Assembly (NCBI GenBank): GCA_019828565.1
Contig: JAHDYR010000033.1
Span: 1-64,000, forward strand
DNA from: Carpediemonas membranifera BICM
Lineage: Eukaryota; Protista; Fornicata
Length of the DNA stretch: 64,000 nt
Direction: 5' to 3'
Shown here piece after piece: positions 3,917 to 40,281 of this stretch. The position numbers and the translations under genes are program-made. Under the pieces are notes generated by a model. The model did not search any database and was not told where the DNA came from. It saw only the letters and a list, made by a program, of their open reading frames with translations. Position 1 is the first letter of the stretch. Every line of letters starts with the position of its first letter.

Positions 3917-4003
3917 TGTTGTGGCCCCACATCATTTGATTGATCCTTTAAACTGCTTCCGTTCTTTATCCTTCGTAACCTTACCAAGGCAACATTGATA
4001 TCA

Positions 4004-7000
4004 ATGAATACCACGGAGACGACAGTTCATGAAGAGAACGATCGGATAGCGGAATTAGAGCGGCAAATTCGGAATTTGACAGGCCTTATCACCGAGCTCT
4101 CATCTCGTGAGGCCAAGAATGTCATCAAGCTAGAGCCATCCGCGCTCACGGAAGATAATCCTAAGCCCGCAACCGCCGAACACGATACCGCTCCGATCAC
4201 CGTCTCGTTCGCACAGAAACTACCCAAGTTCGAGAGTGGCCCGAAGAGCCTATCGGAGGACGACTTGTACTCCTTCTTACTGCGCTACGGCCGCGCTCGC
4301 CGCACCAAACCCGCTCTGGAGTCATGCCTAGGATGCCTCGCCACAGTGGCTCCTCAGCTGCCACGCCAGGCTCAAGGACCTTCATGCCGCACTGGAGGAG
4401 TGGAGCACCCGACTCCCTCTCATCCCGAGCTCGAGCGAGCAGATGCTTGCTTACATGAAGCAGACCGAGGCCGACTATGAGGCTGTCTTCGCAGCCACGT
4501 CACTACCCTTCAACGCGAACCGATCCACCTTCGACAAGGTCGCTGAGTTAGAGGCCCGCCTCACGACCGACTGGAGTAGGTCCCACGACCTCCTCCCCGC
4601 CCAGCGTCTCGCTCGAGCAGCCGAGGCCGTTGGGTTCGCCCTCAAGTGGTACAAGCTGGAGGACGGCCGGGCCATCATGAAGATCGTTAAGAGAACGATA
4701 CAAGCCGGACTGCCCCGCGAGAACCGGCTCCATGCCCTGGCGGAGTCAGTGTCAAGCTTCTCTGCAGCGAAGAGCTCCACGCAGTTTATCTCCGACATGA
4801 TCGAGGAGGTCTCGTCTATCGACGACTCCGCTAAGAAGGTGGGAGTCGACGCCTGGGGCACCTCGTCGAAGCGCCGTCCACAACATCAGCCAGACCGCGC
4901 TTCCCCCGCCGCTCAGTCGGGCTCCTCGCACTCCTCTCGCTCGGGCACCAAGATGCTCGAGCAGGCCACCTTTGAAAGACGATCTCACTCTACTAAGACC
5001 GCCAACAAGTCCAAAGACGACTCCGAGGCCGGGCTCAGGTCCGAGCGGACGAAGATGCCGGACAAGTGGCACGACCCGTCCAAGCCCCCGTTCCCTGGGA
5101 TGACCTGGTGTCCGAATCACGGCCGGTGGGGCTCTCACTCCCAAGAACAGTGCAACATAGGCTCAGGCAAGCCTGAGCCCGAAGGACGCACGCGGAGCGG
5201 TAAGGTCTTCTCACGAGGAGGCAACGCCGCTCTCGGCACTCCGTGGGACGAGGACATGGAGGCAGCCCTCTTCACAACAACCGCCCGCACGGAGGTTATC
5301 GAGGGCGAGCTCCTTCCTGACTCAGGGTCCACCGCGAGCTACATCTCTCAGGCAGAGTACGAGAGACTTATAGCCATCATGGCCATACCCACACGCGTCT
5401 CCACTCATGTGATGCAAACTGCAACACACCAAGAGACTCCAGCTATCTTCGACATAACTCTGACGGTCGGAGCCGACCGACCGGGCCAGTCCCCCTCAAG
5501 AGTGTGGACCACGATCACAGTCCACGTCATTCCGGGTCTTGCGATCCCATTCATCCTCTCGAAGTTCGCCTCCTACGAACTCGGTTTCCTTGGCAACCCT
5601 GATGACACTGCCCTTTCTCGCGACCCCGAGGCTGGCGACATCGAACTCTGGGACGAGGAGCCGGAGACCTCTCTTGACGCCCAGCTCGACAGCGTGATCG
5701 GGAAGAGCGACCCTGCCGTCAAGGAGGAGTTATCGGAGCTCCTCAAGGTCAAGTACAGACACTTGTTCGAACCTCCAGGCGACGAGCCAGCCCTGGCTGA
5801 GCCGATGGACATCATGCTGGTTCCTGATGCCAAGCCCCATGTCGCAAGAGCCTACTGGGTCTCTCCGAAGCTTAAGCAAGCCGTCGAGGAGATGGTCAAG
5901 ACCCTCCTAGCGAAGCACATCATCAGACCTTCGAAGTCGGGGTGGGCAGCGCCTACTTTCTTCGTCCATCAGAAGACAAAGGACCGCATGGTCATCAACT
6001 ACAAGGCAGTCAACGCACAGACTGTCAAGACACCGGTCCCACTCACGTCGATCGACGACCTCCTGTCCCACCTCCAAGGGAGCCAGTTCTTTGCCAACCT
6101 TGATCTGCGCTCTGGCTACCACCAAGTGCCTATGTCAGAGGAGAGCATACCGCTCACAGCCTTCATATGCCACCTTGGCGTCTTCGAGTTCACGCGAGTG
6201 CCCTTCGGACTGGTGAACGCTCCCTCCCACTTTCAGTCAGTTATGATGAAAGTCCTGGGCGACCTATTGTTCCACGGTTGCCTCGTCTATATTGACGACG
6301 TTCTAATCACCGGCTCAAGCAAGGAGGAGTTCCTCGAGAACCTCACCGCTGCCCTGGAACGACTCTCATCACACCGGCTCCGCTTGGGGCTTCCCAAGTG
6401 TGAATTCGGGGTGACCCAGGTGGAGCATCTTGGGCACGTAATATCCCGCGACGGGATATCCATCTCGCGCGATCGTCTTTCGGCCCTCGGCCGACTGCCG
6501 GTACCGACCAGCGTCCGATTGCTACGGTCGACCCTAGGCCTGATAAACTTCTTCAGGAAGTTCGTCAAGGACTACGCCGGGATCGCCGCGCCCCTATACG
6601 AGCTGACCAATGGTTCATCAGATCAACGCTTCACTCTTTCGGAGGAGGCGGAGAAGGCTTTCCACAACCTCAAGGACGCTCTGATCCACGCACCCATCCT
6701 CGTCCACATAGACTACTCGCGCCCGATTGTCGTGCAGTCCGACGCTAGTGGCTTTGGCGTGGGTGCTGTCCTCTTACAACTGTCACCGCATGGCGACCAG
6801 GAGTTCATATCCTTCTTCAGTCGGACCCTGAGGCCGGCCGAGCGCGCCTGGTCCATCACTGAGAAGGAATGCTTCGCTCTGTACTCCGGCGTCCTGAAGT
6901 TCGCCCCTTTCCTCAAGGGCCACACCTTCGTAGCGCAAGTTGACCACAAAAACTTGACTTTCCTTGTCGAGTCCTCTTCTTCCAAGGTCGAACGCTGGAA

Positions 7001-8354
7001 GCACAGACTTTCCGAGTTCATGTTCGAGGTTGAGTACATCCCCGGCCCGGCGAATGGCATCACCGACGGTCTGTCACGCGCCATGCAGGCTGACTTGTGC
7101 CTGGCTGCCGCCCCTGCTCAGGGCCAGTCTCACGAGGAGCTCATCGCCTCAGTGCATGGGAACTCCCTCAGCGGTCACTTCGGGGTCGAGGCCACAACCC
7201 GCAAGCTCACCGACGCCGGACACAGCTGGTCTGGTATGAAGGGCGACGTCCGCAAGTTCGTGCAGGGCTGCCCGGTCTGCCTCAAGTACCGCCTCAAGCT
7301 CAAGGTTTCACACAACCTCGGCCACCTGTACGCCGATACGCCTTTCCACTCAGTCTCGATCGACAGCATAGGGCCCCTACCCTCTGCCGGCGAGACCCGA
7401 CACGTGATTGTCATCGTCGACAACTTCACGAGATGGACGGAGCTCGTCCCTTGCTCCTCCACCACCGCCATTGAGGCCGCGGACGCCCTCGTGTCGAGTG
7501 TCTACTCCCGCCACGGTCTCCCTTACCTCATCCACTCGGACAACGGGTCCCAGTACGTCAACGAGGTGATCGATAGTCTCTGCCACGCTCTGAAGATCAC
7601 CCACACGACTATAGCCCCGTATACCCCCGAACCAGAACGGCATAGTCGAGAGAGCCAACGGTAAGGTCAAGTCGCACCTTCGCACCCTCATGGCCACTCT
7701 TGGTGAGAGGGAGGACTGGCCTCGCGTGCTCCCCCTAGTCCAGTTCCTGATCAACACCGCCTATCACCGTTCGATCGGCTGCTCACCCTACTCTCTCCTC
7801 TACGGCGATCACCTCAAGCCTCGGGTCAGTCTTCTTCCACGCCTGCTCGACGAGGACGAATGGCCTGGCGACGCCTCGGACGACTACGTCAACGACCTGA
7901 GGTCCAGGCTGAAGCAGATCAGGGAGGCCGCCAACAAGTGCCAGAGCGATGAGTTGGCCTACCAACAGGTGCCGACACTCAAGCTCACCCCTGGAGAGCT
8001 CGTGCTCCTTTGTCCGCCTAAGGGCCCGCTCAACAAGCTCGCTCCAAACTATCGCGGACCGTTCAAGGTGTCCCAATGTCACGCCAACAACATGTATACG
8101 ATCGCCAGCATCGTCGACGAGCAGAGTCCCGTTACCGTCCACTTAAGGCGCCTGCGTCAATTCGCCACCACCGCCGATGACACTGAGCTGGCCATGATCG
8201 CCTCCATGGACGCCGATGACCTCTATGTTGTCGAATCCATCGTCGAGCACCGTCCCCTCGCCTCCGATCCGGATGTTCTCGAATTCCGAATCCGCTGGCG
8301 CGGCTACGAGCCCGATGAGGACACCTGGCAATGCTATGACGAGGATCTATGGGG
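4004..8354 (+). CDS. Element A gag-pol (frameshifted; C-terminus resumes at 13350-13440)
   Basis: CPNHGRWGSHSQEQC knuckle-like motif, LPDSGS protease, LDLRSGYHQ and YIDD RT, SDASGFGVGAVL RNase H, HGNSLSGH...CPVC and HSDNGSQY integrase, GPF motif, FRIRWRGYEPDEDTW chromodomain. Removing B gives DEDLWGSIPAEDYIDAHGL... Confidence 0.92.
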
Positions 8355-8482
8355 TGTCGCAATACCGTATTAATATTTATATATTTTATGGGTGTCGTCT
8401 TGGTCCTACTTGGTCCGAGACGACACCAGTGTGTCGAAATAAATTAGCGCATCGTTACAACAGTGAATTCACTAGTGGCTAC

Positions 8483-11400
8483 ATGTTCGGTAATATTTCT
8501 CTGCCGACTCTGAGCGTTGAGACATTGACTAGCGAAACCTGGCGCTCATTTAAGAGGGATGCCGCCCGAATCAAGGCGTTGTATCCCGCCGCCAAGCTGG
8601 CTGTCCTCCTCCCCAATGACCTGCAGGACATCATCGAGGACACTCTCAACGTAGACCTGGCGAAGGCAAATGACGACAAGATTGACGAATACGTCAGCAA
8701 GTTCCTTGCTCCGGTGGACAAATTGTCCCTTGTCAAAGAGCTCGAGGCCGTCACCTGCCAGGTATCTGAAAAAGAATCACCTCCATTCGCGCGTACGTCA
8801 GCGCGTTCTCAGCAGTTTTCTCTAAGGCCGAAGACATCGAAGAGTCCGACTCGGACGAGGACGAAGAGAACAAGAAGAGGACGAAGAAGACATTTCCCCC
8901 TTTGAGAAGAACGCGCGTAAGATCTTCCTTCAGGGGATCCGCCCATCCACTTTCCGCAAGGTCCTGGACTTTGAACTCAAGGAGCATCCTAAGAGGAAGT
9001 CACTTGCCGATGCATACGAGCTGAGCATTGCCCTCGCTCAAGAAGATGACGACGCTCGGGCTAAGGCCATTCGCTTTGGTCACTACCAGGCCGGAAAGTG
9101 CTCCACCCGAAAGAAAGGAACGGCCGCAGGAGGCCAACCGCCTCGCCTCCCGGTCCCGGGCGCAGTTGCCTCAGGGGCCCCGGAGAAGTCTTCCACTCTC
9201 AAGCCGAACGACGTCAACCCAGCTTTGAAGCCTCCCCATCGTGCCTGTGGCAAGTGCGGCGGATGGCATTGGGATAATCAGTGCCCCAATGGGGCCCCAA
9301 TGCGCTCTCGCCAAGAAGGAGGCGGCCTCCGGTCCAACCCGAAGAAGAAGGAGCCAATCGAGGCTAATCTCCTGGACACGGACCCCCGATGAGCCACTCA
9401 AAGTGTCTGGTCGTATAAACGACCAAGAGTATTCCTTTATTATTGACACTGGAGCACCAAAATCTATCATCTCCGCTGCGTCAGCAGAGGCCCTTGGCCT
9501 ACAGACAGTGACCGGCCCGACCCTCCGCTTCAGAATGGCGAACGGTTCCATTTCGACAACTAACCACTATACTGAGGCTTGGTTACACCTCACGCTGGCG
9601 GGAGCCCCAACGCGGTTTAAGGCGAAGTTCGCAATCCTCAGTGGGGACCGCGAGAAAATCCTTATTGGCACCGACATTCTTCGTGTACTCGGGCTTCTCA
9701 CGAAGGATTCCTTATTCCTCCAGCTCGTAGCCGAAAATCTGAGCAAGGAGGACGGGGACGACATTCCGCTGAGTTTGAACCAGTTAGACGTCTCGGAGGA
9801 CGTTGGTGCTGTTGAAATTCCCGAATCCGCGAGCGCCACGCTCCGAAGCGAGGTACGAGCGCTACTTGCTGAGTATTCCACGTTGTTCGGCCCCATTCCG
9901 GCTCAAGGAGCCAAGGTTGAACCTATGCGGATCCGATTGAATGACCCGGACGCCCTGGTCCAGGAACGAGCCCGGAGACTATCAGGGGAACGACGCCTTC
10001 AGGTGCGGGAAGAAGTAACCCGCCTACGCCACCTTGGCATCACCAGGAACAGCGTCGGACCGTTCTCCTCCCCGATCGTGGTAGTGGATAAGAAGAACGG
10101 CGCCATACGCCTCTGTGTGGACGACACAAAGCTCAACATTCTCACCATTCGTGACCATTTTCCCCTTCCCGACTTGAAAACCTTCGTGCAGGAGGCGGCG
10201 GGGGCTCAATTCTTCGCCAGCTTGGACTTGACGTCCGGGTACCATCAGATGCCCCTCCACGAGGAAGACAGAGCTATGACGGCGTTTGTAACACCTGACG
10301 ACTACGAGGAGTTCAACCGAGTCCCATTCGGGCTGACTAACGCTCCGAGTTATTTCCAGCGTACCATGCAATCCATCCTCGCCCCGGTACTCCACCGGGG
10401 GGTGCTGGTCTATATTGACGACATCTTAATCTACGCCCAATCTGAGGAGGAACTTATAGCACGCTTAGAGCAAACCTTCCAGTTGCTGACAAAGTATGAC
10501 CTTCGGCTTAGCCCGGCAAAATGTGTGATCGGCGCGGAGGAGTTAGACATCGTGGGCTTCCACCTTTCCCGCGAGGGGAAGAGCATCGACAAGCGACGAA
10601 TTGAAGCACTCACGTCGATAGAGGCTCCGAGCAATGTTTCAGGGGTCAGAACACTCTTAGGGATGTTTAATTACGTGATCGACTTCATCCCAGCCGCGGC
10701 GGACCTTGTGGACCCCCTCTATGAGCTGATCAGGAACGCCGGTGAGCCATTCGTATGGGGACCACGCCAAGAGGAAGCCCTCGTGGCCCTGAGAGAGGCG
10801 GTAGCCCAAGAGACCGTCCTGGCTCAGCCTGATCCCAGCCTGCCATGGGACGTTCACACTGACGCAAGCGACCGGGGGCTTGGGGCCGTAATCACCCAGG
10901 GAGAGGGCGCGAATCGCCGCCTGGTCGCCTTCGTTTCGAAATTATTTAACGCGACGCAGAGGCGCTGGGCCACCTACGACAAGGAGCTGTACGCAATCCT
11001 TCATACCCTCACCCGGCCTGACTTGAGTCCTCTACTCAAGATGGTTAACTCGCTCACTATCCACACAGACCACCGGAATATTGTGTACCTCATGCGCCGC
11101 TCCCTCGTATCCCCCAAGGTGATGCGCTGGCGGATTGCTTTGCAAGAATTCAATTTCAACATTGCCCACATATCAGGCGAGCATAATGTGGTCGCCGACG
11201 CTCTTCACGGCTAGAATCGTCGACTAAGACTGTGAACAGTGCCGAGATCGTACCATCGGAGGAGGAGAAGCTGCGCATACTTCAAGATCTGCATGAGGGC
11301 GCCAATGGCCACCCCAAGGCAGTACGCCTTACGACTCTTGCGATGGAGGCGGGTCATGTTTGGCCCGACGTCTCGGCACTCGCCAAGCGGGTAGTCAAGC

Positions 11401-12646
11401 AGTGCTTGACATGCCAGAAGTTGCGCGCACACAAGCGAACGCCCCCGGCGAAGAACAGCACACACCGGTACACGCCCTTTGAATGCGTCCAAGTCGACAC
11501 TCTCTCCCTGGGGGCTAGCGGTGAGTACAAGGTGTGCCGTGTTACGAATGAGTTTTATGCAACCAACTCCCGCAGTTTAGGGTCACAAAGGGCGTCTTGG
11601 TCTTCACAGATGTCTTCACGAAATACGTGGTACTGAAGCCGGTGAGATCAACCACGGCCGCCGAGACAGCCCAAGCAATGCTAGAAGTCTGGGCCCTATT
11701 TGGGAAACCAGCGCTACTTCAAACTGATGGCGGACCGGAATTTAGGAACCAAGTGGACGCTGAAGTCAACCGGATCCTCTCCCTCAAGCATCGTTACTCG
11801 ACCCCACATCACCCAGCCTCCAACGGAATTGTTGAACGCACGAATGGAAAAGTCCTTCGTCTGTTGCGGGGTTTACTATTTGACAGCCAGGACTATGACT
11901 GGGTTCCTTTCCTCCCTTTAGTGCAGTACATCATTAATACACGGCCAACACGGGCCACGGGGCAAGCCCCCTTACGCCTAGTGACAGGCAATTCGGGATC
12001 CGACTCCGAGCAGTTTTCAGTCGCGCAATACGAGCGGGCGTGGGTCCTATTTAAGGAAATGTCGGCGGGCCAAGCCGATTGCCTGAAGGCGTTCCGCGAC
12101 GCCCTTAATACCCGCCGTCTGCAAGCCAAGGCTCATCTCCAACGGTATAGCGAACGAAACAAGAGCGGCGAGGACAGCGACACACCTCCGAGCTTCCCGG
12201 ATGGCTCCTTCGCACTCCTCCGCTACGTTGGCAGAGCTCCCAAGCTGCTCACCAGCCTCCGGGGCCCGATGAAGGTTGTACGAGCCGGCGAATCGCCCGC
12301 TACGCACGTGGTTCGCGACTTAGTGTCGCTGGCAGAGGTCCTGGTCAGCGATGAGCGACTCATTCCTGTCGAGACGCCAGAGGACGAGCAAGCCCTGATC
12401 GCTAGACTTGCCGCCGAGTGCGGTGAGTACGTGGTCGACAATGTCTACAAGCACAGGGTCTCAAACAAGGGGTCCAAGGTCGAATTCAAAGTCCACTGGC
12501 TGGGCTACGAGCCGAGCGAAGACTCTTGGATTAGTTTTACCAGAGACACCGACCAGCTGGAGGCCCTAGACCAATATTTGCGCGAGAACCCTGCACTAGA
12601 GCCGACTCTGGCTCGTATTCGTCGCAGGTGGCGGGCCCGGTCCTAG
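8483..12646 (+). pseudogene. Element B gag-pol (several frameshifts and a solo-LTR insertion)
   Basis: CGKCGGWHWDNQC zinc knuckle, IIDTGA protease, LDLTSGYHQ and YIDD RT, TDASDRGLGAV RNase H, QTDGGPEF integrase, FKVHWLGYEPSEDSW chromodomain. Confidence 0.92.
11533..11587. mobile_element. 55-bp solo LTR in the integrase of element B
   Basis: TGTG...CACA termini flanked by 4-bp TSD AAGG (11529-11532/11588-11591). Removal restores EYKGVLVFTDVFTK. Confidence 0.85.
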
Positions 12647-13113: not shown

Positions 13114-13190
13114 AAAAATATGGTGACTCCGGGGGTCGAACCCGGTTCCACCCTGAAGGAAGATCCTCGACCATCGGATGGGTTTCTGAC
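13114..13190 (-). other. tRNA-like (Pol III box B) sequence in the 3' UTR of element B
   Basis: Minus strand: ATCC-GATGGTCGA-GGAT D-arm-like hairpin, CCGGG-TTCGACC-CCCGG T-arm, AGTCACCA, then TATTTTT. The acceptor and anticodon stems do not pair well. Confidence 0.45.
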
Positions 13191-13496
13191 ACAATTTGCA
13201 AAGTGGCTTTAATACTCTCGGTGGGGGGGAGGGGTAGTGTCGCAATACCGTATTAATATTTATATATTTTATGGGTGTCGTCTTGGTCCTACTTGGTCCG
13301 AGACGACACCAGTGTGTCGAAATAAATTAGCGCATCGTTACAACAGGGGCAGCATTCCTGCCGAGGATTACATTGATGCCCACGGGCTACGCCCGATCGT
13401 GGGAGAAGCGGGATGTTGTGGCCCCACATCATTTGATTGATCCTTTAAACTGCTTCCGTTCTTTATCCTTCGTAACCTTACCAAGGCAACAGTACC

Positions 13497-13687
13497 TCTC
13501 CGACTTCATGCCGGGGCTCTCGCTCAAGGTGCTTCGGACGTTCAATGCATGCGTGGTGCTCGACCGGCTACTGTGAAAGACGCCGAAGGGACTCTTTGGA
13601 CAGGAGGTGATGCTCAAGGCACACTACACCGAGGCCAACAAGGAGGTCGCAGTGATGTGTAACCACCAGAAGTCGGTCAACAAGGGC
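13497..13687 (+). pseudogene. TOP1: DNA topoisomerase IB, fragment 2
   Basis: LSDFMPGLSLKVLRTFNACVVLDRLL*KTPK...YTEANKEVAVMCNHQKSVNKG (catalytic Arg and His motifs). In-frame TGA at 13574-13576. Confidence 0.93.
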
Positions 13688-13830
13688 TGTCAGCGCGGCA
13701 CTTCAATCAAATATTTATTTGATTGATGATCCGATCCGATCCCCGGGCAGGGTCCCGAATCGTCTTTTTGTTTTGCTTGTAAAGCTTCACCCCCCGTTTC
13801 GTCTGCGAAACGAACAGTATTAATACTAGT

Positions 13831-25940: not shown

Positions 25941-28302
25941 TCTGCTCTCTCCAGCGTCCTCACTCGTAAATGTACGTTGCTGTCTTGTCTGCTTGATCTG
26001 ATTTCATTTAGTGTGCACTTTAGGGGATAGTTTCATTGCAACGCCAAAATGGCGAGTTCAGGTTGTAGCAATGATCTGATGCGCGGAACGTACTAGAAAA
26101 CATTGCAATTACAACGCAAAGCAGCGAAAAGCGGAGAAATCAACATCAATAACAACATCAACACCAAAAGAACAGTATCCCAAAGAATTGTGGGCGTTGC
26201 TGCGCCAAAGAGCAATAAATGACCACAAAGCATTCGCTTATGCACAATTAGCTGCCAGAAAGAACACTACACCGTTACTTTGGATCATTCCAGTTCGCCG
26301 GAGATGACGCAGGTCCAGAACGCTGCCTTGGAGGGCTGGTGAAGCGGTTGTGTAGCGCTTACTCGCCTGGCCTTTGGGGCTCTCTCAACATCCTTCCAGA
26401 CTACTGCATTGTCATTCACCGGAGGAGCAGGCCAGAGTCACTTGCCATCTGGCGCATCATGAGGAGATATTGGAATGTGATGATGTGTTTATTGACTAAA
26501 TGAGCTGGAATTAGGCGGGTTTGATGTTGCTTACATGTTCTGTGGCATGCCTGATGTCCAAAGATGTATTTTGGCACAGTGATGTTGTTTAGTGTGCTCA
26601 TTGCTGACCGCATAGTTATCTGACGTCAATGTGTCGTGTTGATGGCAAGAAATCGATGGTAGCTCGCACGTTTGAGGTAGTTGCTTGTTGCATCGATGCA
26701 ACGCACTTTAAGGATTAACCACCTGTACCCCATAGCCGTTTCCTAAGGCCAAATGCGGTCCTCTGTAGCGTATATACACGCGTGAATTGGGACTAGATGG
26801 GACTAGATGCAGTGTTGTGGCATGCCCGGTCTAGCTGAATCCACAAATGTGGATCGGCTCGGGCTGCCGTATAGGTGGCCTGCTCTGGACTTATGGCTGG
26901 AGATACAGTTGGCAGGTAGTTGACTCGTACATGCTCATATGGACAACCGACGGCCATTTACTTCTGGTGCTTTTCCTGCTCTCTCTTCTCCATCAGGTCG
27001 TCATACTCGGCCCTCGTCAGCCTCACAGTTGTCATCCCGGCATCACGGATGTGCTCAAAGGCCTCAACGGGCAGCTTCGGCATCCCGTCGTCGCTGTCGC
27101 TGCTGCTGCCGAAGTCTGACTCGCTCTCGTGATAGCGGCGAAGGCGAATGCGTCTGCTGGGCTCCCTGGCCTTCATAGAGTCATAGAGCGGAGCGAGCCC
27201 ACTTCCATTGGTCCCGCTACGGACACCCTCATCGGTATCTCTCTCAGACATATCACACTCAACCTGTTGTGACTGAACAAATGACAGGTTGTCGACGAGG
27301 CTATCCTCGGCATCGCTGTCTGAACTCTCCTCATCCTCCCACTCTCCTTCCAGCATCTCCAACCCGGCCTCATCGTCAGACTCGCCCTCCACCGCGGTCT
27401 CCGGCATCTCTGCCTCGCCAGCTGTCTCGTCAAACAGCGCCTCATCGTCAGACTCCCCCTCCCCCGTGTCGACCCCATCGGGATTACGCTGGTCGTGGAG
27501 CTGGACCATCCTAATCCTGAGCTTGTTGTAAAGCCAGTCATCGAGCGTCGGCGGCACCAGGTCGGCAGAGCTTCGGATCTCCGGGTTGAGATCGAGGATC
27601 GTTGGGCGTCGCGTGGTCGTTAAGTGACTGGACGCCAACTGGCGCCTGAACTGCTCATCGGTCAGGCTGATGCGCTTGTCCTTAATGACCTTACGAACCT
27701 TGGTCGGATCCCTGGGCCTGCCCGTCCGTCTCTGTGTCTCAATCACCCGCTTCTTGAGCTGATTGAGATCGACATGCACAGTGGGCGCATAGCGAAGCTG
27801 GTTAACACTCAGCCCGACCGACTTGAGAGCCTGCGAGAAGGTGCTAGGCATCACAGTGGACATCGTGGATGGTGCCCCGGTGAATAGCAACCAGTCAGCG
27901 AGTTCCGGGGGAATCTGGAGCTCGCTCACATCAATATCGCGGGCTGATGTGGCAGTCATGCCTGTGTGGCTGATGATAAGAGCCAGCGCATTGTAGGGGA
28001 AGACTAGTCGGACAATAGCTTCCGATGCGACAGGCTCAAACTGCCCAAGCGGCTTGACATTGTCTCTGCCGGAGTTTCGGAATGAGTTGACGGCACTGAG
28101 AGTGACAGCAGCGGTTGCCTTGCTCAATGATGCAGCAAAACCGGGCACAAGCGATCTAACCTCCTCGGGCCGGATCACGGAGAGCGCTTCGTCCTCGGTA
28201 CTCCCTCGCTCACGTTGTACGAATTGAACGAACCGCGAAAGGTTGTTTGCGGCCGCTTTCCGGGAAGATTTCTTGCTGATGGTGCACAACCAAGCATTCT
28301 TC

Positions 28303-31300
28303 CATACTGTCTCCGGGGGGGGTGAGGTACCCACCTCGAATGGGTACCTTACCCATGGGTAAGGTACCCAGTATCTTTAAAAAATTCATTAAAATTCGGT
28401 CAAGAGGTGGGTATGGTACCCATTTTTGCCCATTTTTCGACCAAATCTTCTTCCAATCTCAAGATTGAGCGTAGGAATATTTCTATAGATCTAGTAAAGG
28501 TTAGTTCAAGGCAAATAAGGACACGAGCTAGATCTATGGGAATATTCCAACGTACAATCGCGAGATATTAAAAAGATTCACTGGTTTTTGCGAGAATTGA
28601 GGCTGCTGCTCTGTAGGAAGTTCAGAAAGAGAGGAAACTTCTCCCATGAGTAGTACCTAACTATAGAAGTATCCTGAGGGTACAACTTTATTTATTTTTA
28701 TTTGCACTCACTTTGGATATTTCGAAAAAGACAGTATGCGCCGTGTCCGCATTCAGGCGTAGAGGAGGACTAGCACATCCATTTCCATTTAAATTAAACC
28801 TATTCCAAGCAATTCAATGAATGACTCGAGAAAGATTCAGTCGATTTATTTCCAAAGACGATGAAAATGAATACAAAGAGTCTTCGAACCTCGCGAAAAG
28901 AAACGAAAACAACATCAAACATCCACGCAGGCACTAAGAAGCCAATGTGCATCAAGATTCGCGCCATCAGTGGTTACTGACCGCGAACTATGCTGTTTGT
29001 GGCGAATGCAATCACAGCTTCTTCAATGATGCGAGAAGAACGCACAATTGCGTTCAGCTCTTTCGGTATGCGTGAATCGAGGTAAAGATTCTCATTAATG
29101 TGGTTAACCTCGGCAGCGACATCTTGAATGGACAAACACTTGGAAACAACGCGCATGCAGGCCGAAATCTCGCGATCACAAACGTTAAACGCCAGTTTGT
29201 GGCTGATCAGCTTTGAGCTATCACTTCTTTCTTCATATTGATCCATCTTGTCCGAATTGCGCACTTCTTTCTTCGGATTTACGAAAGGTCCCGATAAAGG
29301 AGCCTTCCGTCGGCTGAAGCGTGGAACTGTATCATATTACATACAATCGAGTAAATTCATAAACGGGTGTCTCGCCATAAATCCTTCTTTATATTCTTCA
29401 AACTTACTCATTGTCTGGCTGGAACCCACCAAATGACGGAATAGTAGGCTGTTTCCGTTTCTTGGCACTCTTCCTCGACTTCCCTGGGCGATAAGCCTCG
29501 TCATCAGACGAATCGTGACCAGCTCCCAAATGTTCGCATATACATACCGTGATTTCCACGGGATTACGCGGTTCCGTGCGCTTTGGTAACTGGCAGTGCA
29601 GCATACCATCGTCCCAGACTACCTGGCATGTCATCACATCCTGTGCCATTCTCGAGTCGAATGTTCGCCAGAACGTGGTGAGATCACGTTTCAGCTGGTC
29701 TAGACCTGCGTTCTCCAATGGATCCACACTCATTCCGCGCACCTTCTTCCACATCTGGGCACTCTTCACGCACTCATGTACATGCATGGCAACAAGTGTT
29801 CCCAGCGCCGGAATGCTGTGCTGTCTCCTGCCAGCGGACTCAGTCCTCAGCAACGCACGCTTGATGTACTTCGCCTGGGACATCAGACTGACGAGATGCA
29901 GAATTCGAGCTCTCTGAGCGCGTTGCTTCATCTCCATGTTGGGCAGGAATGATCGCTCAAAATGTTCCTCCAGCATGAACGTCAGAGGGAGCATAGTCTC
30001 CTGATGGATCAACGGAATGACTGCAACGGCAGCGTGCATCTTAAGGGTTATGACACAAGGCTTCTTCATTTCCGCACTCTTGGTCTTGGTGCGGTATGAG
30101 CCATCAGGGCAGATGCTCATTGCGGTGTGGAACGCGTGTATGACTGCGGCGGCGACCCAATGCCAGCGGATCAGCTCAGGGGTCGGGTCCTCCATCGAGT
30201 AGTAAAGATGCTGGAGGTGAGCGATGACACGGAAAAGCTCTCTCACACACTCTGGCACACACGTGATATGTGAGGTAGCCAGGACTGCCAGTCTTGCACG
30301 AGCTCTCTCTTGCTCGTTGCAGCCAACTGTTCTGACGAACTCAGTATTGCCGCTCTGCTGACGCCAGAAAGAGAGTTCTGGGTTGCGTGGTGGTTGTGGA
30401 AACATCTTAACCAGACACGCGACTTGCTCAAGGAGCTCATGGCTGGTGTGCATCAGCGGCGGGGCGACTGTTGTCAACTCGGCAAGAGCAGGGCTGTCCT
30501 GGAACAGAGGGATGAACTGATTCTCATCCCACTTGTACTTACCGTACCGGTGTTGAAGATCCAAGGTGATCCGATCCTTCTCTTTGATCCTCACTCGTCT
30601 GCCTGGGCCCAGTGTACTGCTCAGATGATCAATCTCTTGCTTTTGTGCCGCGTAGTACATCTGTCGGCGGAGGAGTAGGTCGGATAACTGCACAGAGATG
30701 ACCTTGTACTGTGGGTTGGCAGCGGCGATACGATCGCGTATGGTACTGAATCCATACGGGTTGGAAATGAACTCTGAATCACTGAGAACAGAAAACACAC
30801 ACCTGTTCTTGCCGCCGCGCATGGTTCCGAGCAGAACTTGGAGAGCCTTGTTGTCGGCCAGGGTATGGACGCGGCAAATTTGGGCAATAGCGCCAGTCTG
30901 CCGGACACAGAAGTGGAGGTTAACCAAGTTACTGATCTCCGCAGCAATACGGGGGTACAAAGATGGAATTTGGTCCTCGTGGCCGATGAACTCCAAGAGT
31001 GTGAAGACCCGGGTCAACTTCCCAGGAATGGCAATGCCCTCCTTGTCACCAAGCCTGAACTTAACTGCAGTAGTTCCATGCTTCCAGCCGTCAACCCACA
31101 GGCACAACTCAAGGTTGAAGACCCTGCCAGCCTCAACTTCGTCGTCCTTTGCGCATACCTCCAGACATGTCTTCCGAGCAGGCTTATCGGCAACAAATGC
31201 CATCGGACGAAGAAGGACCGAGGTGCATATGGCCTCACAGTCAAAGAAAACCGAACTAACAAAATCCCAGGGGTTGGGGGAAATAATTGTAGAGCGAAGT

Positions 31301-32575
31301 CCCTGCCGTCTATGAATCCTGTCGGCCCGGACAGTATCACGTGCCTGTTTCGCATCTATCGCGTCTGCATATAGTAGCTTGGTTGTCTGGCCAAAGCGGA
31401 CAGTGTCAGTCGGGGTGAGCTGCAGACGTTCCACGGTTGCGTCAATGAGCTCCTGCGAACCAATGAAATTGACGGTCTGACCGATAGGGACAGTCAGCCT
31501 GGAGCTGTCAGCTGTGACTGTGACGCCAGCCTCTTGGATGGCATACTCCACGGGAATGAAGCAAGACAGATCGGCCACCTCCTCCTCCGACAGTGCCTCG
31601 CGAAGGCCTGGGATATTGAGTATGCTCATGTCCAGCCCGGCAATCGGCTCCCGGCGCTTCTGAGTCCTTCCTATCGTGGGAATATAGGCCATTTTGGAGG
31701 TATGAGCGACCGGGAGGGGGGGAATGGGGGGCATTTATGGTATGGCTGGACTCTACTCGGGCAGACTATTATAACGAGGCTCAGACCAGACCTCTACGGC
31801 CGCTATACGAGGAGAAACGAGCCAGTAAGGGCACTAGCGGCCCATGGCCGCAGCAGCGCCCAGCCAAGCTCAGCTATAGGGTCACATGGGGCCCAAAATG
31901 ACGTGCTCATCAGGTCGACTCCCATCTATTGACTTGGTAATTGCAGAGGGCGTTTGAACGCGATGTCCTAATAACCGACTTGGTCGGAGCGGTTCGGCGA
32001 TGACTCCGTTGTATTTCAAGCCTTCTTCTGATGCCGAAACATGCAGTCCTTTTGAGTCAACGCGCGTCCTGTCCGTCAGGCATGAAGGGCATTCAGCAGA
32101 GGCATTGCTGCGGTCTGCAGGCCGCCCTAGCGCTTCAGGATGGCCAACTGCAGGATCTGGACCCATGTCTATCAAATCCATTTTGATCACATCAATGTGT
32201 CAAATCTGACGATTCGACGATGAAGCGTCAGGGACGTTTTCAGGGCGGCAGAAGCGGCTTGTAGACCTGTCATAGACCATAGAGCGATGACGCAGCATGT
32301 TTGTATTTTTTTGTCCGGTTGTTATATCTCCGCATGTATCAACGTAATTGCACTGGACTCACTCTACTGTTGCTATGTGAGTGTAGGGGACCGCGTGGGC
32401 AGCTCTAGAACAGTCATAGACCGGACTTGAGCTCTTGCAGGAAAAAAAACTGGCGGCCTTGGTTGGTGGTTTTTCGGGACCGTATCTAGAAAAGATTCGA
32501 GATACGGTGGGTACCTTACCCATGGGTAAGGTACCCATTCGAGGTGGGTACCTCACCCCCCCCGGAGACAGTATG
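28303..32575 (-). mobile_element. 4.27-kb TIR DNA transposon F, putatively autonomous
   Basis: Perfect 68-bp TIRs CATACTGTCTCCGGGGGGGGTGAGGTACC... at 28303-28370 and 32508-32575; 2-bp TSD TC (28301-28302/32576-32577); one long internal ORF. Confidence 0.92.
29404..31734 (-). CDS. DDE transposase, Chapaev/Transib/RAG1-like
   Basis: 776 aa with motifs in the expected order: LWVDGW, LADNKALQVLLG, NRCVFS, APPLMH, TLKMH, LEEHFERSF; basic C-terminus. Confidence 0.75.
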   Translation of the reverse strand: MPPIPPLPVAHTSKMAYIPTIGRTQKRREPIAGLDMSILNIPGLREALSEEEVADLSCFIPVEYAIQEAGVTVTADSSRLTVPIGQTVNFIGSQELIDATVERLQLTPTDTVRFGQTTKLLYADAIDAKQARDTVRADRIHRRQGLRSTIISPNPWDFVSSVFFDCEAICTSVLLRPMAFVADKPARKTCLEVCAKDDEVEAGRVFNLELCLWVDGWKHGTTAVKFRLGDKEGIAIPGKLTRVFTLLEFIGHEDQIPSLYPRIAAEISNLVNLHFCVRQTGAIAQICRVHTLADNKALQVLLGTMRGGKNRCVFSVLSDSEFISNPYGFSTIRDRIAAANPQYKVISVQLSDLLLRRQMYYAAQKQEIDHLSSTLGPGRRVRIKEKDRITLDLQHRYGKYKWDENQFIPLFQDSPALAELTTVAPPLMHTSHELLEQVACLVKMFPQPPRNPELSFWRQQSGNTEFVRTVGCNEQERARARLAVLATSHITCVPECVRELFRVIAHLQHLYYSMEDPTPELIRWHWVAAAVIHAFHTAMSICPDGSYRTKTKSAEMKKPCVITLKMHAAVAVIPLIHQETMLPLTFMLEEHFERSFLPNMEMKQRAQRARILHLVSLMSQAKYIKRALLRTESAGRRQHSIPALGTLVAMHVHECVKSAQMWKKVRGMSVDPLENAGLDQLKRDLTTFWRTFDSRMAQDVMTCQVVWDDGMLHCQLPKRTEPRNPVEITVCICEHLGAGHDSSDDEAYRPGKSRKSAKKRKQPTIPSFGGFQPDNE

Positions 32576-33853
32576 TCACGTCTTGCATGCTTGTTTCCAT
32601 CTCCCGCGGGCTTCCTTCCATCGATATACGGATTTCAGACTTTCGTCATGCACAAAAATTCGAATCTCTCCAAATGCCCAAAACAGTGGTCAAACCGTGT
32701 TCAGGGGTACAAAAGAGTGCCATAGGCACGTTCTTGCATTTCAAAATATTCTAGAGGTCGTTCATAAATTCTCAGATGGCCAACAGTACGAAAGTCTGAA
32801 ATCCATTTATCATGAGACCCGACAAATTTGAAATCCATTTATCGGGTGGATACATCACTGTAGAGGGTATTCATGGATATAGGTGCCTTTTCGGTGCCGA
32901 GGGGAGTCAACATTTGAGGTCGTGCAGGCAGAAAGTCTGAATTCCGTTTATCTCACCACTGCTTAGTGTTCATGGCAGACAACGGCTTCCTGGCGACGCC
33001 TGGGGTGTAAGGATTCGCTTGCCTCTGTGTTGTCGCATCAGCTTCGCTGAAAACGGGGGAACTGACCCGCGCATTCGCGCACTTTATGCTCGCAACGAGA
33101 TTGAAATGGCGAACTTAAGAATAGAAAGAATACTGGCGGCTTTAACGATACAGGCATGCACATATCACTAAGAAACATCAGTATGCGGGCGCAGAGCATC
33201 ATTAAAGCAACAATTATCTCTAAACAACATCAAGTACCAAAAGTCCATCAGGACGAAACGATATGACCTATAAATGGAGCACAGAGCAGTACAGATGATT
33301 TGAGAGTACCAGGCATGGCCAGAATACCGTAATTATCGTCCGTTCATCCACGTGACCTCCATCTTGGTCGGTATCCAGAGAACACCTGTCAGACGCTTGC
33401 AACGGAACATTTAGGGGGTGCATCCTAAATGGGTCCAGATTTGAGGCACCCTTGGTCTGACATGCCATGACCGAGCACTCTAGGGGCCTCCACAGTGCGT
33501 CCCGAGGTACGTTAGAGCACCACAGACCTTCCCCCAAAAGCTGACTCCTGGACCCCTTGGCCGGAGCTCGCCCGAAGCGTGCCTCGGCTTGAACTAACGG
33601 CAAGAGAGCATAAAATCAGCCCTTTCGAACCGTGTTTTATGCTCTGCTGCCGTTATAGAATTATTCAAAGGGCCCTCTCTTTGCGCTTTTTTCTGGTTCG
33701 TGGGACGAAGTAGGGACGGACAAAAAGCACATACGGAAGGTATTGGAGGTACTGAGGCCGCCTAGGTACATAGTTGCCGTGTGGATGGTTTCAGTTTATT
33801 ACTTTTGGCACTCTATGTCCATTTTTTATGCTCTCTTGCTGATAGTGCCGAAC

Positions 33854-35606
33854 ATGGACTTGCTAAAGTGGATTGAGAGCGCTAGCAAGGAACAGTACGA
33901 TGCGATATTGGCTGCATACACCAAGGCAACCACCAATCATGCCAAATGTGCTGTCCTTCGCGCGGTTTTGCTGGATGAACGGAAACTGCTCGATCTAGTC
34001 ATCAGGAAGCGTTTGTAGTCATAGCAATGCTTATATAGGAATCAACCTGAACCATATCACCACGAAATTCCGCCTCACGAAGGACGAGAAGGAGGAGCTC
34101 CAGGATAAGTTGAAGAAGCAGTTTATGGCACTCGCCGGACCAAGAAGTTCCAAGAAGCTCGGCGCGCTGGCGAAGTGGGTTGACGACAACCAGGCTGATA
34201 TCGTGTATAGCCAGGAGAAGCGCAAGGCGCGTAAGGCCATTATTGAGGCCATTGACGCCGAGGAGAAGGACAAGGGCAAGGGCAAGGCCGAGAGCGCTAA
34301 GAAAGAACCCGTCGACGATGAGAGTGGCGTGGACAGTGGTGAAGAGAGCGGCGTCGACGATTCTGAGTTGTGCGACAGTGAGAGTGAGGTGGACTTTGAC
34401 AACGAGTCCGACGATGAGATTAGAGAACGCGCGATCAAGCGCCGGCGCGAGAGAAAGATCGCCCAGAAGCTCAAGGAGTGGGAGGACAATAACGCTCGCA
34501 ACTACGTCCTGTGGCATAGAGTCCAGAAGGAGGTGCACGGCGAGCTTCGCATTCGCGCCTCTCGAGAGTCAGCTTCGGTTGCTGGGGACAACCACGTCGA
34601 CGTCCAGTTCGACAGATACCTTCGCGTATCCAAGCTGCTCGAAATGAAGGACTGGATTCACAAAGACCTCCCATCTCTTCCGATGGAGGCACGAGTGCTC
34701 CATCACAAGGCGCAGAAGAGAGTACTCGAGCTGGAGGAGACCGTCACGAGGCTGCTGCAAGACGTGGGGTACGCAGCTGACATCTCCATGGGTGCCAGCC
34801 CGACACCCGCGCCGTTTCGCCGCGACCTACCCCAGTCGGGCACACACCAAGCACGAACGAGTACCCCCCGCCGTACGGGGAAGAGCGACACAATCCACAT
34901 GAAGCGCAAGGCCCTCATGACAATCCCTCAGAAGATCGCTGATGTCGATAGCAACTCAGAGGAGTCAGACGAGGAGGAGATGGTGACAGAGGAGAAGAAG
35001 CGCGAGGCACACGAGGAGGTGGTGACAGAGGAGAGGAAGGGTGAGTCACATGAGGAGGACGTGACCAAATGCGACGCCTGCATCCAGACTGAGCCGGAGA
35101 CTCAGACTCGCATCACCTCTGAGGCCGCGGTGCAGACGTGCATCAACGCGGAGGCTCTCACGGCTGGCTGTACCGCGATTCATGTCAAGAGTGACGGCAA
35201 CTGCGTTGCATATTGTCTCCAAGCCATTGAGTTGGGTGGCAGAGTTGATGGCGACTTCGAAAGGTGGCAGCGTGGCCTCTGCCAGTCAGTGAAGGCCAAG
35301 TACTGGTCTAAGAAGAATTTCACGGAGCGTAGCCTGACAGATCCGGACTCCGGCTACTATAACTCGAACGCCATCCGAGTCTGGGCGAGGAAACAGAAGC
35401 GGAACATCCTTGTTGTCCAGTCATACGACGGATACAACGGCATGCAAGGCATCTCCGCCATCTTATACCTGTTTGATGGCACCACCATGCTTGCACCCGA
35501 TGCAGACTTGTGGGGGTTGACAGATAATTTCGCTATTGTCATCGAAGGCGATCCGGCTCACGCCACGCTGTACCAGAAGAAGTGCGAGGTCGTTGAGATT
35601 GAATAA
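33854..35606 (+). CDS. Lys/Glu-rich protein with C-terminal OTU-like cysteine protease domain; 28-nt intron 34011-34038
   Basis: MDLLKWIE...IRKR spliced to INLNHITTKF; IHVKSDGNCVAYCL (OTU DGNC motif) and distal DPAHATLY His. Confidence 0.6.
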
Positions 35607-35721
35607 AGATTTGGATATGCCCGTGTAGCCAGCGGTTCATGACCTGCAGCAGACATTTGGACGTACAGCGGGATACCACATCAATTAGGTCACTTGCGGG
35701 CTAAGATTGTCGTTGTCGATC

Positions 35722-37887
35722 GTCATTCACCGGAGGAGCAGGCCAGAGTCACTTGCCATCTGGCGCATCATGAGGAGATATTGGAATGTGATGATGTGTT
35801 TATTGACTAAATGAGCTGGAATTAGGCGGGTTTGATGTTGCTTACATGTTCTGTGGCATGCCTGATGTCCAAAGATGTATTTTGGCACAGTGATGTTGTT
35901 TAGTGTGCTCATTGCTGACCGCATAGTTATCTGACTTCAATGTGTCGTGTTGATGGCAAGAAATCGATGGTAGCTCGCACGTTTGAGGTAGTTGCTTGTT
36001 GCATCGATGCAACGCACTTTAAGGATTAACCACCTGCACCCCATAGCCGTTTCCTAAGGCCAGATACGGTCCTCTGTAGCGTATATACACGCGTGAATTG
36101 GGACTAGATGGGACTAGATGCAGTGTTGTGGCATGATCTGCAAGATCGACCAGCCCCTGGATCACTTGGGCCTGCCTCCGTGCCCGGCCTGTTGCGATCA
36201 ATGATGGTGATTACTTGCAACGAACGCGATCACCGGAAATTACCTTACCTTACCTTACCTGCAGGTACCATGGGTGTTCGTTTTCGTCTCCAAACGCCAT
36301 GGTGTAAGAGCATAAAGTGCATTTTCTGTTTACTGTGCCGTTGGGGATTGATGGCGCTGGCGTAGGGGTGCTGTGTGGGCGCCAGGGATGACGGCGCCAG
36401 GGATGAGGCGCCAGGGATGAGGCGCCAGGATGAGGCGCCAGGGATGAGGCGCCAGGGATGAGGCGCCAGGATGAGGGAGCCAAGATGAGGGCGCCAGGGA
36501 TGAGGCGCCAGGGATGAGGCGCCAGGGATGACGGCGCCAGGGATGAGGCGCCAGGGATGACGGCGCCAGGGATGAGGCGCCAGGGATGAGGCGCCAGGGA
36601 TGAGGCGCCAGGATGAGGCGCCAGGATGAGGAGCCAAGATGAGGGCGCCAGGGATGAGGAGTACAGTATTTGAACCCCGAAAACGCCATATTACCAGCAC
36701 CAATGAGCTTCATCAACGAAGATGCGCTCACTGGTGCCGGTTATGGCGTTTTCGGGGTTCGTCGATCATTCTGCTCCCAAATCTGCACCTGTATTTTTCG
36801 TGAGCATGCCCGGGAGCTGGGCCAGACGAGTGGTGCCACAGGGACTAAGCTCCGCTGCTCAGCCTCTGCCAGGCGACACTCGTCTGAATTCTGCACGAAA
36901 AATTCAGACGACGAATGATGGGCAAGGGCCGCGAAAACGCTGAAGTACCAGCGCAAGTAGAGCGGTTTGCAATAAAATAGCTTACTTGCGCTGGTGCTGG
37001 CGTTTTCGGGGCCCTGAATTGCCCCGGGCGCTCTCCCAGGCTTCTCTCTCCCGGGCTCCTCTCTCCCGGGCGCTCTCCCCGGGCTTCTCTCCCGGGCTCC
37101 TCTCTCCCGGGCGCTCTCGGGCTCTCTCCCGGGCGCTCTCCCGGGCTCCTCTCTCCCGCGCTCTTCTCCCCCGGGCTCCTCTCCCCTGGGCTCCTGTCCC
37201 CAGCGCTCTTCTCCCCCGGGCTCTATCCTCCGGGGCTCCTGTCCCCAGCGCTGTTTCCCCAGGCGCTCTGCTCTCTCCAGCGTCCTCACTCGTAAATGTA
37301 CGTTGCTGTCTTGTCTGCTTGATCTGATTTCATTTAGTGTGCACTTTAGGGGATAGTTTCATTGCAACGCCAAAATGGCGAGTTCAGGTTGTAGCAATGA
37401 TCTGATGCGCGGAATGTACTAGAAAACATTGCAATTACAACGCAAAGCAGCGAAAAGCGGAGAAATCAACATCAATAACAACATCAACACCAAAAGAACA
37501 GTATCCCAAAAGAATTGTGGGCGTTGCTGCGCCAAAGAGCAATAAATGACCACAAAGCATTCGCTTATGCACAATTAGCTGCCAGAAAGAACACTACACC
37601 GTTACTTTGGATCATTCCAGTTCGCCGGAGATGACGCAGGTCCAGAACGCTGCCTTGGAGGGCTGGTGAAGCGGTTGTGTAGCGCTTACTCGCCTGGCCT
37701 TTGGGGCTCTCTCAACATCCTTCCAGACTACTGCATTGTCATTCACCGGAGGAGCAGGCCAGAGTCACTTGCCATCTGGCGCATCATGAGGAGATATTGG
37801 AATGTGATGATGTGTTTATTGACTAAATGAGCTGGAATTAGGCGGGTTTGATGTTGCTTACATGTTCTGTGGCATGCCTGATGTCCA
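35722..37887. repeat. Second repeat block Y-Z-X-Y' with contracted minisatellites
   Basis: Near-identical to 26411-26824 and 23669-26560. Confidence 0.93.
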
Positions 37888-38251
37888 GAGGATACCCCTC
37901 AGAGGTGACAGTGCAACACCCGAAATTTTGTCTATACACGTCATATACAAGGTCTAATGCATCTTTGCCAACCACTTTTAGCGTTTGTATGTGTCAGACG
38001 ATCGAGTTCTGAAGAGCGACTTTGGCCAAGTCATGCGACCTTATCCTGCACTGACGATACGAAAACCGATCATAAATATTTATTGAGACATCTGCATGCA
38101 GTATTAATGTGTCCAGAGGTGAAGCTAGGTCTATAGAGTACGCACGCCAACTTTACTACTGATCCGCGAGATTCGATCAAAATCGATCAAAGAAACTGGA
38201 ACCAATTCTGGAACTATTTGTTCCAGAAAAGGTACCAGAATTGACTGCATG

Positions 38252-39588
38252 AGGGCAGCAGTCCGATCTCTACCATCTGGCTGTAACCAAAACTGACTTC
38301 GTACGCAGTTTTGAGAACGAAAGCGCGGATCTTCAGCTCGCAGCCACGTGGCGTGAAGGGAGATGGCCTCAACGTGATCTGCACCGATACGGTGCCTTCA
38401 GCTTCTCGTATTCCACCTGCCGTTTGGATGCGTACAGTATCGTGGTTGATCCTGGTAACGGCTGGCGAGGAGCACAGATCGGGAGATATCGTGGCACAGT
38501 CAGCACCAGAGTCTAGTAAGACCTTCACTTCGGCCTTCTCGATGACTCCATTGACTACAGGCAACGACCCTCCACCTGACGCAGCGGAAAATAAACACTT
38601 CGCCCCGTTTACTGGGGACTTAAAACGACAGAACTTCTCGAGGTGACCCTGCTTCTTGCAAACCGGGCATGTGGCACGATCCCGCGGGCACTTGAAGGAT
38701 GGATGGCCCGTCTCGCCGCAGTTGTAGCACACCAGCTCGCGCTTGCCCTCTCCTCGTTGGTTCGGGGCTCTTGCGGCTGGCTTATCCTGATGATGAGGCT
38801 TGGCGATTGGCTTGGGGGCGGGATGGGTGGGTTCGTGGTGAAGACCGCGATGGGGTTTGCCCGACTTAGCCTTGGTTGACGACTGCTTGTCGGTCATTCC
38901 GATGGAACGCAGCATGGCACGGGATTCCTCGATATCGCGAGCGATATCAATCACCCGCGGCATAGCCAGTTCGAGGGAGAAGCCTTCGGTGAGATCCTTA
39001 ACCTTGTACTGAACGCGCGAATTATCGGGTAGCTTAAAGCAACGCGCGTAGGTGTCGCAGAGGATCTCAGAGTCTACCCCGGGATCAACAAGGGAGAGGA
39101 GGGTTCTGAACCGTCGGTTCACTCGAACCACCTCCTGCGGAGTAAAAGGACGAGATGGAGAGACGGAACAAGTCGAGACGGGCAGAAAAACGGGACGGTT
39201 GCAGTGCTCTACCGAGCCGCTTGAGGACGCGGTCGTCTTTAGCGAGACGCTTGGCCTTGCGCTTACGCTTGTGCGTCTTTCGGACAGCTGCGGTTAGGAT
39301 GAGGGACTGCTGGAGGGGTTGCTCGTCGTCTTTAGGCGTTCCGGCTACTGGTGAACCTTCATCGTTCACGGGGACAGAGGCCTCAGCCGAGGGGATGGCT
39401 TCAGAGGCCTTGGCGAAGAGGTTAAAGCCGAGAGCGTCAGCGTACCGTTGGACTTCGGTGTCAATCATGTCGGCAACGTCGGCATCACCGCCTTTGGCTC
39501 GGTACTCGGACAAATCCTCGGCGAATCGGACTAACGACTCAATGGTCGTCTTCTTTAGCATAGGCATATTGTTATAGAGCGTCATCAA
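38252..39588 (-). CDS. Element D gag-protease (one frameshift near 39100)
   Basis: Two CCHC knuckles CYNCGETGHPSFKC and CPVCKKQGHLEKFC; LLDSGAD protease. Confidence 0.93.
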
Positions 39589-40281
39589 AACGTGGAATAC
39601 TAGTATTGTGGTTCGTTTGACGAACTATGTTTACAAGAGGAGAAGACTCGACACAATGGTGTCGAGGAGAAACTCCTTGACTAACTAATATCATATATAA
39701 ATCTGTGTAATCTTGGGTGAGACCCATGACACTGGATCACCCGACGGCTGTGGCACCCCTCGAGGCGCTGGCTCGTCGTCGCCGCTGGCGATGATGATCC
39801 CCATCTGATCGGGACCTTAGCACGTCCTAAACTATAAACTGCTGTCTGAGAAGCTTGATGTTGCTTAATTGAGACTAATGGACCGCTTGCGAGGAAGAAT
39901 CCCGTCGAAGATCCGAAGCTTTCGTGAAAGTTCTTGTATCTCGCCAACGAGGGCCTATTGAGGCCAATGGAGGTCATTTTCAGCACCTAGGAGCTCTTTA
40001 GCTCAATAACCTCCTTCAATGGAGTTGTTCGTCTTCACGCTCAACTATCTAATCAAACCATCGCATTTGATGGGTTTCGGATGAAATATCATAGACCAGT
40101 CCTCGCCGCCGCGCCCGTTACTCGTGGTCGTTACCACTGGGAGGGAAGTGTCAGCGCGGCACTTCAATCAAATATTTATTTGATTGATGATCCGATCCGA
40201 TCCCCGGGCAGGGTCCCGAATCGTCTTTTTGTTTTGCTTGTAAAGCTTCACCCCCCGTTTCGTCTGCGAAACGAACAGGGC

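Follow-up and report, generated by a model that had tools for sequence, protein, structure and literature searches.

A 64,000-nucleotide stretch of the Carpediemonas membranifera BICM genome (contig JAHDYR010000033.1, positions 1 to 64,000; hereafter the window, meaning the whole stretch analysed) carries a nest of four long terminal repeat (LTR) retrotransposons of the Ty3/Gypsy type, here called A, B, C and D, with B lying within A and D within C. In all four, the place directly behind the 5' LTR at which a primer-binding site (PBS) is expected is occupied by a perfect 12-bp palindrome, composed of the last A of the LTR, a 10-mer and a T. This palindrome is a real, conserved and covarying feature of the whole reverse transcriptase (RT) clade to which the four elements belong. 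A to D are young Ty3/Gypsy elements of one chromodomain-bearing clade, and we put at roughly 50% the probability that the palindrome is the primer site and that reverse transcription is started without tRNA by two packaged element RNAs that anneal and one of which is cut. Annealing of two RNAs had been proposed in an earlier note on this DNA, and of the readings weighed below it appears to fit best. Besides the known modes of priming in LTR elements, such priming on a partner RNA could tentatively be a third, used by a broad, undescribed clade of protist Gypsy elements and with a parallel origin in the fungal GalEa Copia elements, a proposal held somewhat less firmly than the priming model itself.

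The palindromes read ATTGATATCAAT in A (3994-4005, extended to 14 bp at 3993-4006 by flanking C/G), AGTGAATTCACT in B (8462-8473), AGTATTAATACT in C (13816-13827), all on the forward strand, and AATACTAGTATT in D on the reverse strand (39596-39607). The C site had previously been read as GTATTAATAAC, with a bulge; its palindrome stands, and the bulge came from a misreading of GTATTAATAC, the perfect and unbulged 10-mer at 13817-13826. A start codon close behind the LTR, claimed in that note as that of gag, was found in each element, the distance from the LTR end to the first ATG being 9 nt in A (ATG at 4004, overlapping the palindrome), 20 nt in B, 17 nt in C and 21 nt in D. Across the window, 88 starts of palindromes of at least 12 bp were counted over 127,936 positions (0.07%) and 7 over 8,656 CA dinucleotides, and five of these seven are the four sites described here, that of A being counted on both strands. 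No such palindrome occurs at the 3' LTR junctions of A, B, C and D. Three other origins were rejected: an assembly artefact, because the trait recurs in unrelated datasets; a remnant of the target site duplication (TSD), because TSDs sit outside the LTRs; and simple AT-richness, because G-C pairs are present in the palindromes of B and of L026, a relative outside the window.

That the site abuts the 5' LTR of four different Gypsy elements was confirmed in all four, with RT-RNase H identities among A, B, C and D of 34-50%. Their LTRs are 78-129 bp long, with both copies of each pair 100% identical, start with TG, end with CA and have a purine tract 5' of the 3' LTR; the TSDs are GTACC (5 bp) for A and GGGG, GGGC and CCAG (4 bp each) for B, C and D, so that the ends and polypurine tracts are normal, as had been stated. 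Pfam detected RT and RNase H in A, B, C and D, along with parts of an integrase or a chromodomain, and Pfam and PDB matches together give both the domain order protease-RT-RNase H-integrase and the Ty3-like RT by which Ty3/Gypsy elements are recognized. Among PDB structures, the RT of C is best matched by 4ol8 (E 5e-57) and 7q5b (E 3e-56), the latter being Ty3 Gag-Pol. The Pfam Chromo domain, at the integrase C-terminus, scores above the cut-off in A, B and D and below it in C (E 7e-4).

Protein searches for RT relatives gave 263 and 216 matches, of which the best 120 of each were used. In an IQ-TREE tree of 81 RT-RNase H rows, from which locus L258 was left out because its RT segment had been wrongly cut, A to D fall within a 33-row clade (bootstrap 97, Shimodaira-Hasegawa-like approximate likelihood ratio 92) consisting chiefly of environmental proteins together with ones named Carpediemonas and Aduncisulcus. 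Cluster annotation of the ten nearest relatives provided no names, except that two members of one cluster are called hypothetical. Among the host genes of the window, a phosphodiesterase has Carpediemonas membranifera as its closest named match (45%; three matches, one being the protein of the window itself), which on this single gene points to a probable metamonad host, and a protein search with a host protease gave no indication of the host. In the best tree the RT clade of A to D stands apart from an 18-row reference group of plant- and fungal-type chromoviruses (99/98), whose rows were labelled from host names, PBS type and domains and include no named chromovirus, and the approximately unbiased test does not reject the union of the two (p 0.097). 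A to D are thus chromodomain-bearing Gypsy elements, and of their earlier designation as chromoviruses the chromodomain holds, with C below the Pfam cut-off, whereas membership of the RT in the chromovirus clade is not established.

DNA reaching the 5' end was obtained for five clade members outside the window (L010, L026, L246, L157 and L257), and a palindrome lies at the inferred LTR end in four of them, being of 12 bp with the same A + 10 + T arrangement behind CA in L010, L026 and L246, and of 20 bp in L157. In each of these four it is the sole CA-anchored palindrome in the scanned upstream stretch and lies 0-36 nt before the first ATG; in L010 (palindrome at 109-120) the gag-pol ATG is formed by the first three bases behind the LTR, so that the site also encodes the first residues. 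A blind upstream scan was run on the 86 loci that had been placed in the tree and had 1800 nt or more 5' of the RT; it excluded shorter loci, duplicates of loci already included and about 69 loci that we take to be plant-pararetrovirus-like. Of the 82 loci outside the clade, many of which may lack the 5' end, four had a match, and for none of the four was a position at an LTR end established; the matches lie in gag open reading frames (ORFs) (L032, L040), in an AT run (L117) and in repeat-rich sequence 210 nt upstream of gag (L254). The difference between 4/5 within and 4/82 outside the clade gives a Fisher p of 1.5e-4, or 4.4e-4 if L176, a locus of variable placement, counts as a miss. Scoring the sites of relatives had been suggested in the earlier note, and the enrichment was borne out apart from L257, which has no CA-anchored palindrome. 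Nine unrelated elements with a located end (that of L013 being set one base short) served as a further control; none has a palindrome of more than 4 bp at this place, and TGG lies within 2 nt of the end in eight. Of the metagenome collection, 5 of 64 parts were scanned, and the best 80 of 565 matches were used; in scans of viral contigs no locus was confirmed with two alignments and a third gave only L258, and the genome carrying L157 yielded L157 and no further element.

The palindromes differ in sequence and remain self-complementary. When seven of the 12-mers were aligned, all 42 pair cells were Watson-Crick, 13 of them being changed on both sides, and four of the six pairs, the centre included, had undergone such two-sided changes. 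Pairing as high as this was reached in 0/500 shuffles, a count that is not a probability given that the seven aligned sequences are kin, and structures slid along the alignment pair at 21-57%. The seven differ from one another at 2-8 positions, always in mirrored pairs; only 1 of 5040 half-swaps between them remained perfect; positions 1, 3, 10 and 12 are invariant; and the central four bases occur in five forms, all symmetric. Both-side changes in independent relatives thus support the earlier claim that self-complementarity is conserved where the letters are not. The centre, which varies here and yet stays paired, would be left unpaired in a hairpin. Judged from the aligned 12-mers, the central symmetry shows that a full-length duplex is formed at some step, which need not be an RNA dimer.

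Neither a tRNA-type TGG site nor a Tf1-type LTR complement was apparent in A to D or in L010, L026, L246 and L157. TGG within 12 nt was found at 0/8 LTR ends, the first TGG being absent or 13-37 nt away in all eight, which agrees with the claim that no tRNA-type site follows the LTR. For Tf1-type pairing, the longest Watson-Crick complement between LTR and site is 4-7 nt in all eight elements, the level of shuffles, and when G-U pairs are counted it reaches 9 nt only in D, as do 4% of shuffles. As a control, the best complements over the scan in fungal-type loci were 10 nt (L249), 9 nt (L253) and 7 nt (L248), so that the claimed lack of Tf1-type pairing was upheld beside two fungal-type chromovirus loci with 9-10 nt. 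In the 5' regions of L249 and L253, the 10-nt and 9-nt complements are formed by upstream sequence and the site behind GTGACACT, consistent with Tf1-type priming. Within the window, neither a tRNA gene (ARAGORN) nor an Rfam match was found.

The trait itself is not new, given its published parallel in the fungal GalEa elements of the Ty1/Copia superfamily. The Conserved Hairpin Site of GalEa is palindromic over 10 bp, the last A of the LTR among them, and no model was found to fit it (Donnart et al. 2017, PMC5445492). In both cases a tRNA PBS and an LTR complement are lacking and the palindrome lies right behind the 5' LTR, with the final A of the LTR included and a T at the end; inclusion of that A holds for all eight palindrome-bearing elements here, and in GalEa the palindrome was proposed as a substitute for the PBS, with the mechanism unknown (PMC5445492). 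By contrast, GalEa elements are Copia with 10 bp, whereas those described here are Gypsy, with integrase after RT-RNase H, and have 12-20 bp; two sequences account for 85% of the GalEa families, whereas here eight different sequences covary; and the second GalEa arm, CHSeq2, lies 12-41 bp downstream, whereas the longest downstream partner in any of our eight elements is 3-5 nt.

Tf1 and the Sushi elements (Tcn1) are likewise Gypsy, frequently carry a chromodomain and prime without tRNA from their own RNA after an RNase H cut (PMC7175516, PMC4600332, PMC6317226), and tRNA-free priming is what we propose here. However, the Tf1 primer is formed by the first 11 nt of the transcript and is complementary to a non-palindromic PBS, whereas the elements described here have an LTR complement no longer than expected by chance and an RT that falls elsewhere in the tree. 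Skipper of dictyostelids is a protist Gypsy element with a chromodomain and without TGG or LTR complement, for which a novel self-priming was suggested, and it differs, compared with A to D by description alone, in having a polypyrimidine stretch and no palindrome (PMC5006619). No palindromic Gypsy site was found in the portions consulted of PMC6934838, PMC10680173, PMC3601003, PMC2806351, PMC11042837 and PMC2864245, and the main text of the diatom element paper (PMC2806351) has no wording on self-priming by a palindrome. In the literature covered, chiefly open-access main texts, we found neither a description of a palindromic PBS nor a test of its mechanism for Gypsy. Prior description in a known clade, which the earlier note had named as a refutation, therefore holds in part, for fungal GalEa Copia (PMC5445492) and for no Gypsy clade that we found.

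Known primers of LTR elements are a tRNA, a half tRNA and the 5' end of the transcript. Some Gypsy and Copia entries of Repbase may bear the label 'self-primed by a palindrome', for a 12-bp palindrome with which the internal region begins where a PBS would be expected; if so, a Gypsy case has already been annotated. The GalEa palindrome has been without a working model since 2017. The elements described here show the same signature in the other superfamily, and their paired changes extend through the centre, which narrows the possible mechanisms. If priming occurs on a partner RNA, a host tRNA would not be needed, such elements would probably escape control by tRNA fragments, and it would become clear why PBS finders report no site in them.

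We reasoned that, since the complement of a palindrome is the palindrome itself, a second copy of the element RNA is a natural primer. In the proposed pathway, two packaged RNAs would anneal over the 12-bp palindrome, one of them would be cut near the palindrome's 3' side, possibly by RNase H by analogy with Tf1, and the end so produced would be extended into the U5 of the partner. The primer would then be the cut piece comprising R, U5 and the palindrome, and the remainder of that RNA would still be able to accept the first strand transfer. Two parts of this pathway have precedents, in that RNase H cuts paired element RNA to make the primer in Tf1 (PMC7175516) and that Ty1 and Ty3 particles contain RNA dimers (PMC4974528). 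The element ends read AN|TG in 7/8 cases and CA|NT in 8/8. A comparable pattern is shown by processed integrase ends. The pattern suggests that DNA starts two bases outside the CA, although the A of AN|TG is likely anyway given the purine tract; with such a start the primer duplex would be about 9 bp. In plus strong-stop DNA, the palindrome of the element itself would be copied backwards. The second strand transfer would then require perfect symmetry, and any change in one half would reappear mirrored in the other, which would account for a fast turnover of letters without mismatches.

Several points weigh against priming on a partner RNA. The LTR ends of L010, L026, L246 and L157 were inferred from single or truncated LTR copies and not from two full LTRs, and the seven aligned sequences are, as mentioned, related. 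L257 belongs to the clade and has an open ORF, and its upstream scan gave no palindrome anchored at CA; some 105 nt 5' of the ATG it has a perfect 12-mer that follows TA at 2728 and that may be the site, a chance occurrence or a TATA-like box. L176, placed within the clade by one tree and excluded from it by two, has no palindrome. In two of eight dimer folds (L010, L246) the palindrome stays a hairpin. The central symmetry is no proof of an RNA dimer, for the second strand transfer in priming by fold-back demands symmetry too. Finally, palindromes mediate dimerization of retroviral RNA, and have been proposed to do so in Ty1, without priming (PMC3592414).

The last point leads to the alternative that survives best, although we consider it unlikely, namely that the palindrome is a dimerization or packaging signal like the dimerization initiation site (DIS) of human immunodeficiency virus type 1 (HIV-1) or the PAL motifs of Ty1, with the minus strand primed by something invisible in the sequence. 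The DIS and Ty1 PAL1-3 are likewise short self-complementary RNAs near the 5' end and linked to dimers (PMC3592414, PMC4974528), and a dimer signal would predict paired changes at the centre just as well. However, the Ty1 PALs span 6 nt and are not situated at the LTR end, HIV-1 and Ty1 still use a tRNA PBS, and the DIS occurs besides a PBS and in a loop (PMC5445492). In all eight elements described here, the palindrome starts exactly on the last A of the LTR, where the primer defines the DNA end, and no other primer site was seen.

Somewhat less probable still is fold-back of a single RNA, which would be cut behind the palindrome and, as a 4-bp hairpin atop a stem of U5 and leader, would prime on its own U5. 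In monomer folds the palindrome lies in a hairpin in all eight elements, U5-leader pairing is above shuffles in three of eight (Fisher combined p 0.004 for 15 nt and 0.018 for 25 nt), GalEa elements have a predicted hairpin at the same place (PMC5445492), and the second strand transfer could yield the central symmetry here as well. The predicted energies argue otherwise, being 0 to -1.8 kcal/mol for the hairpin of the isolated 12-mers versus -6.8 to -19.3 kcal/mol for their self-duplex, and the support by the leader would be lost after the cut. Moreover, in five of eight the flanking stem does not exceed chance, and one of nine tRNA-type controls has such a stem as well. Priming by a host tRNA half or small RNA whose 3' part is self-complementary by chance is improbable. 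Half-tRNA priming is known, in Copia-type elements (PMC5371799), but eight different sequences would need eight palindromic host RNAs, four of them in one host, and differences confined to mirrored pairs (2-8 positions among the seven 12-mers) speak against it too. The least probable reading is that the palindrome has no role in RNA and works at the level of double-stranded DNA, for example in binding a dimeric protein or in end processing by integrase. Although positions 1, 3, 10 and 12 are invariant and the T at +2 mirrors the A at -2 of the other end, the eight other positions vary freely yet paired, unlike a protein-binding site, and in linear cDNA most of the motif would fall beyond the LTR end.

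The remaining features of the nest, on the forward strand unless stated otherwise, are as follows. A begins with a 78-bp 5' LTR (3917-3994), 100% identical to the 3' LTR at 13414-13491, which has a purine tract 5' of it; its gag-pol-chromodomain region (4004-8354) is spread over ORFs in three frames with matches to RVT_1, RNase H, rve and Chromo and is broken at 8354 by B. The 108-bp 5' LTR of B (8355-8462) is identical to the 3' LTR at 13238-13345, again with a purine tract 5' of it, and the pol of B, assigned from ORFs and Pfam, lies in several pieces at 9289-12646 and comprises protease, RT, RNase H, integrase and chromodomain. C has 129-bp LTRs at 13688-13816 and, identical to it and preceded by a purine tract, at 40149-40277, and a gag-pol of 1382 aa in one ORF (13834-17982; ORF, Pfam), with D inserted at the chromodomain end. 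On the reverse strand, D has its 125-bp 5' LTR at 39607-39731, identical to the 3' LTR at 17969-18093, ORFs with Pfam matches for gag and protease at 38214-39585, and RT, RNase H, integrase and chromodomain in three frames at 19825-22631 (Pfam), a 15.7-kb insertion lying between these two parts. Both nested insertions, B into A (8354) and D into C (17968), are at the end of the chromodomain coding region of the recipient element. ORFs without a Pfam match run antisense to D between its chromodomain and 3' LTR (19395-19781 and 18695-19450, forward strand).

The 15.7-kb insertion (22534-38251) separates the protease of D from its RT and may represent a DNA transposon, as yet unclassified. Its terminal inverted repeats are perfect over 56 bp, and it contains long direct repeats with tandem arrays (about 23670-26820 and 35720-37890) as well as large ORFs without a Pfam match at 29404-31734 (reverse strand) and 33999-35603 (forward strand). 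A second element with terminal inverted repeats of 74-76 bp, containing a 30-bp palindrome, is nested in it at 28303-32575, and the ends of both begin with CAT. The insertions of A and C interrupt a single topoisomerase-I-like sequence at points 196 bp apart, leaving it in pieces at 3742-3916, 13493-13687 and 40279-40839, of which the middle piece has an in-frame stop and the last matches Topo_C_assoc (E 4e-28). Just upstream of the topoisomerase-like piece lies a separate retropepsin-like aspartyl protease fragment (3126-3764, forward strand), and an ORF of a non-LTR retrotransposon with endonuclease and RT matches (377-2185, reverse strand) runs off towards the window start. Further downstream, 48524-50612 and 56969-59056 form a direct duplication of 2.1 kb, 99.8% identical, with the copies 8.4 kb apart.

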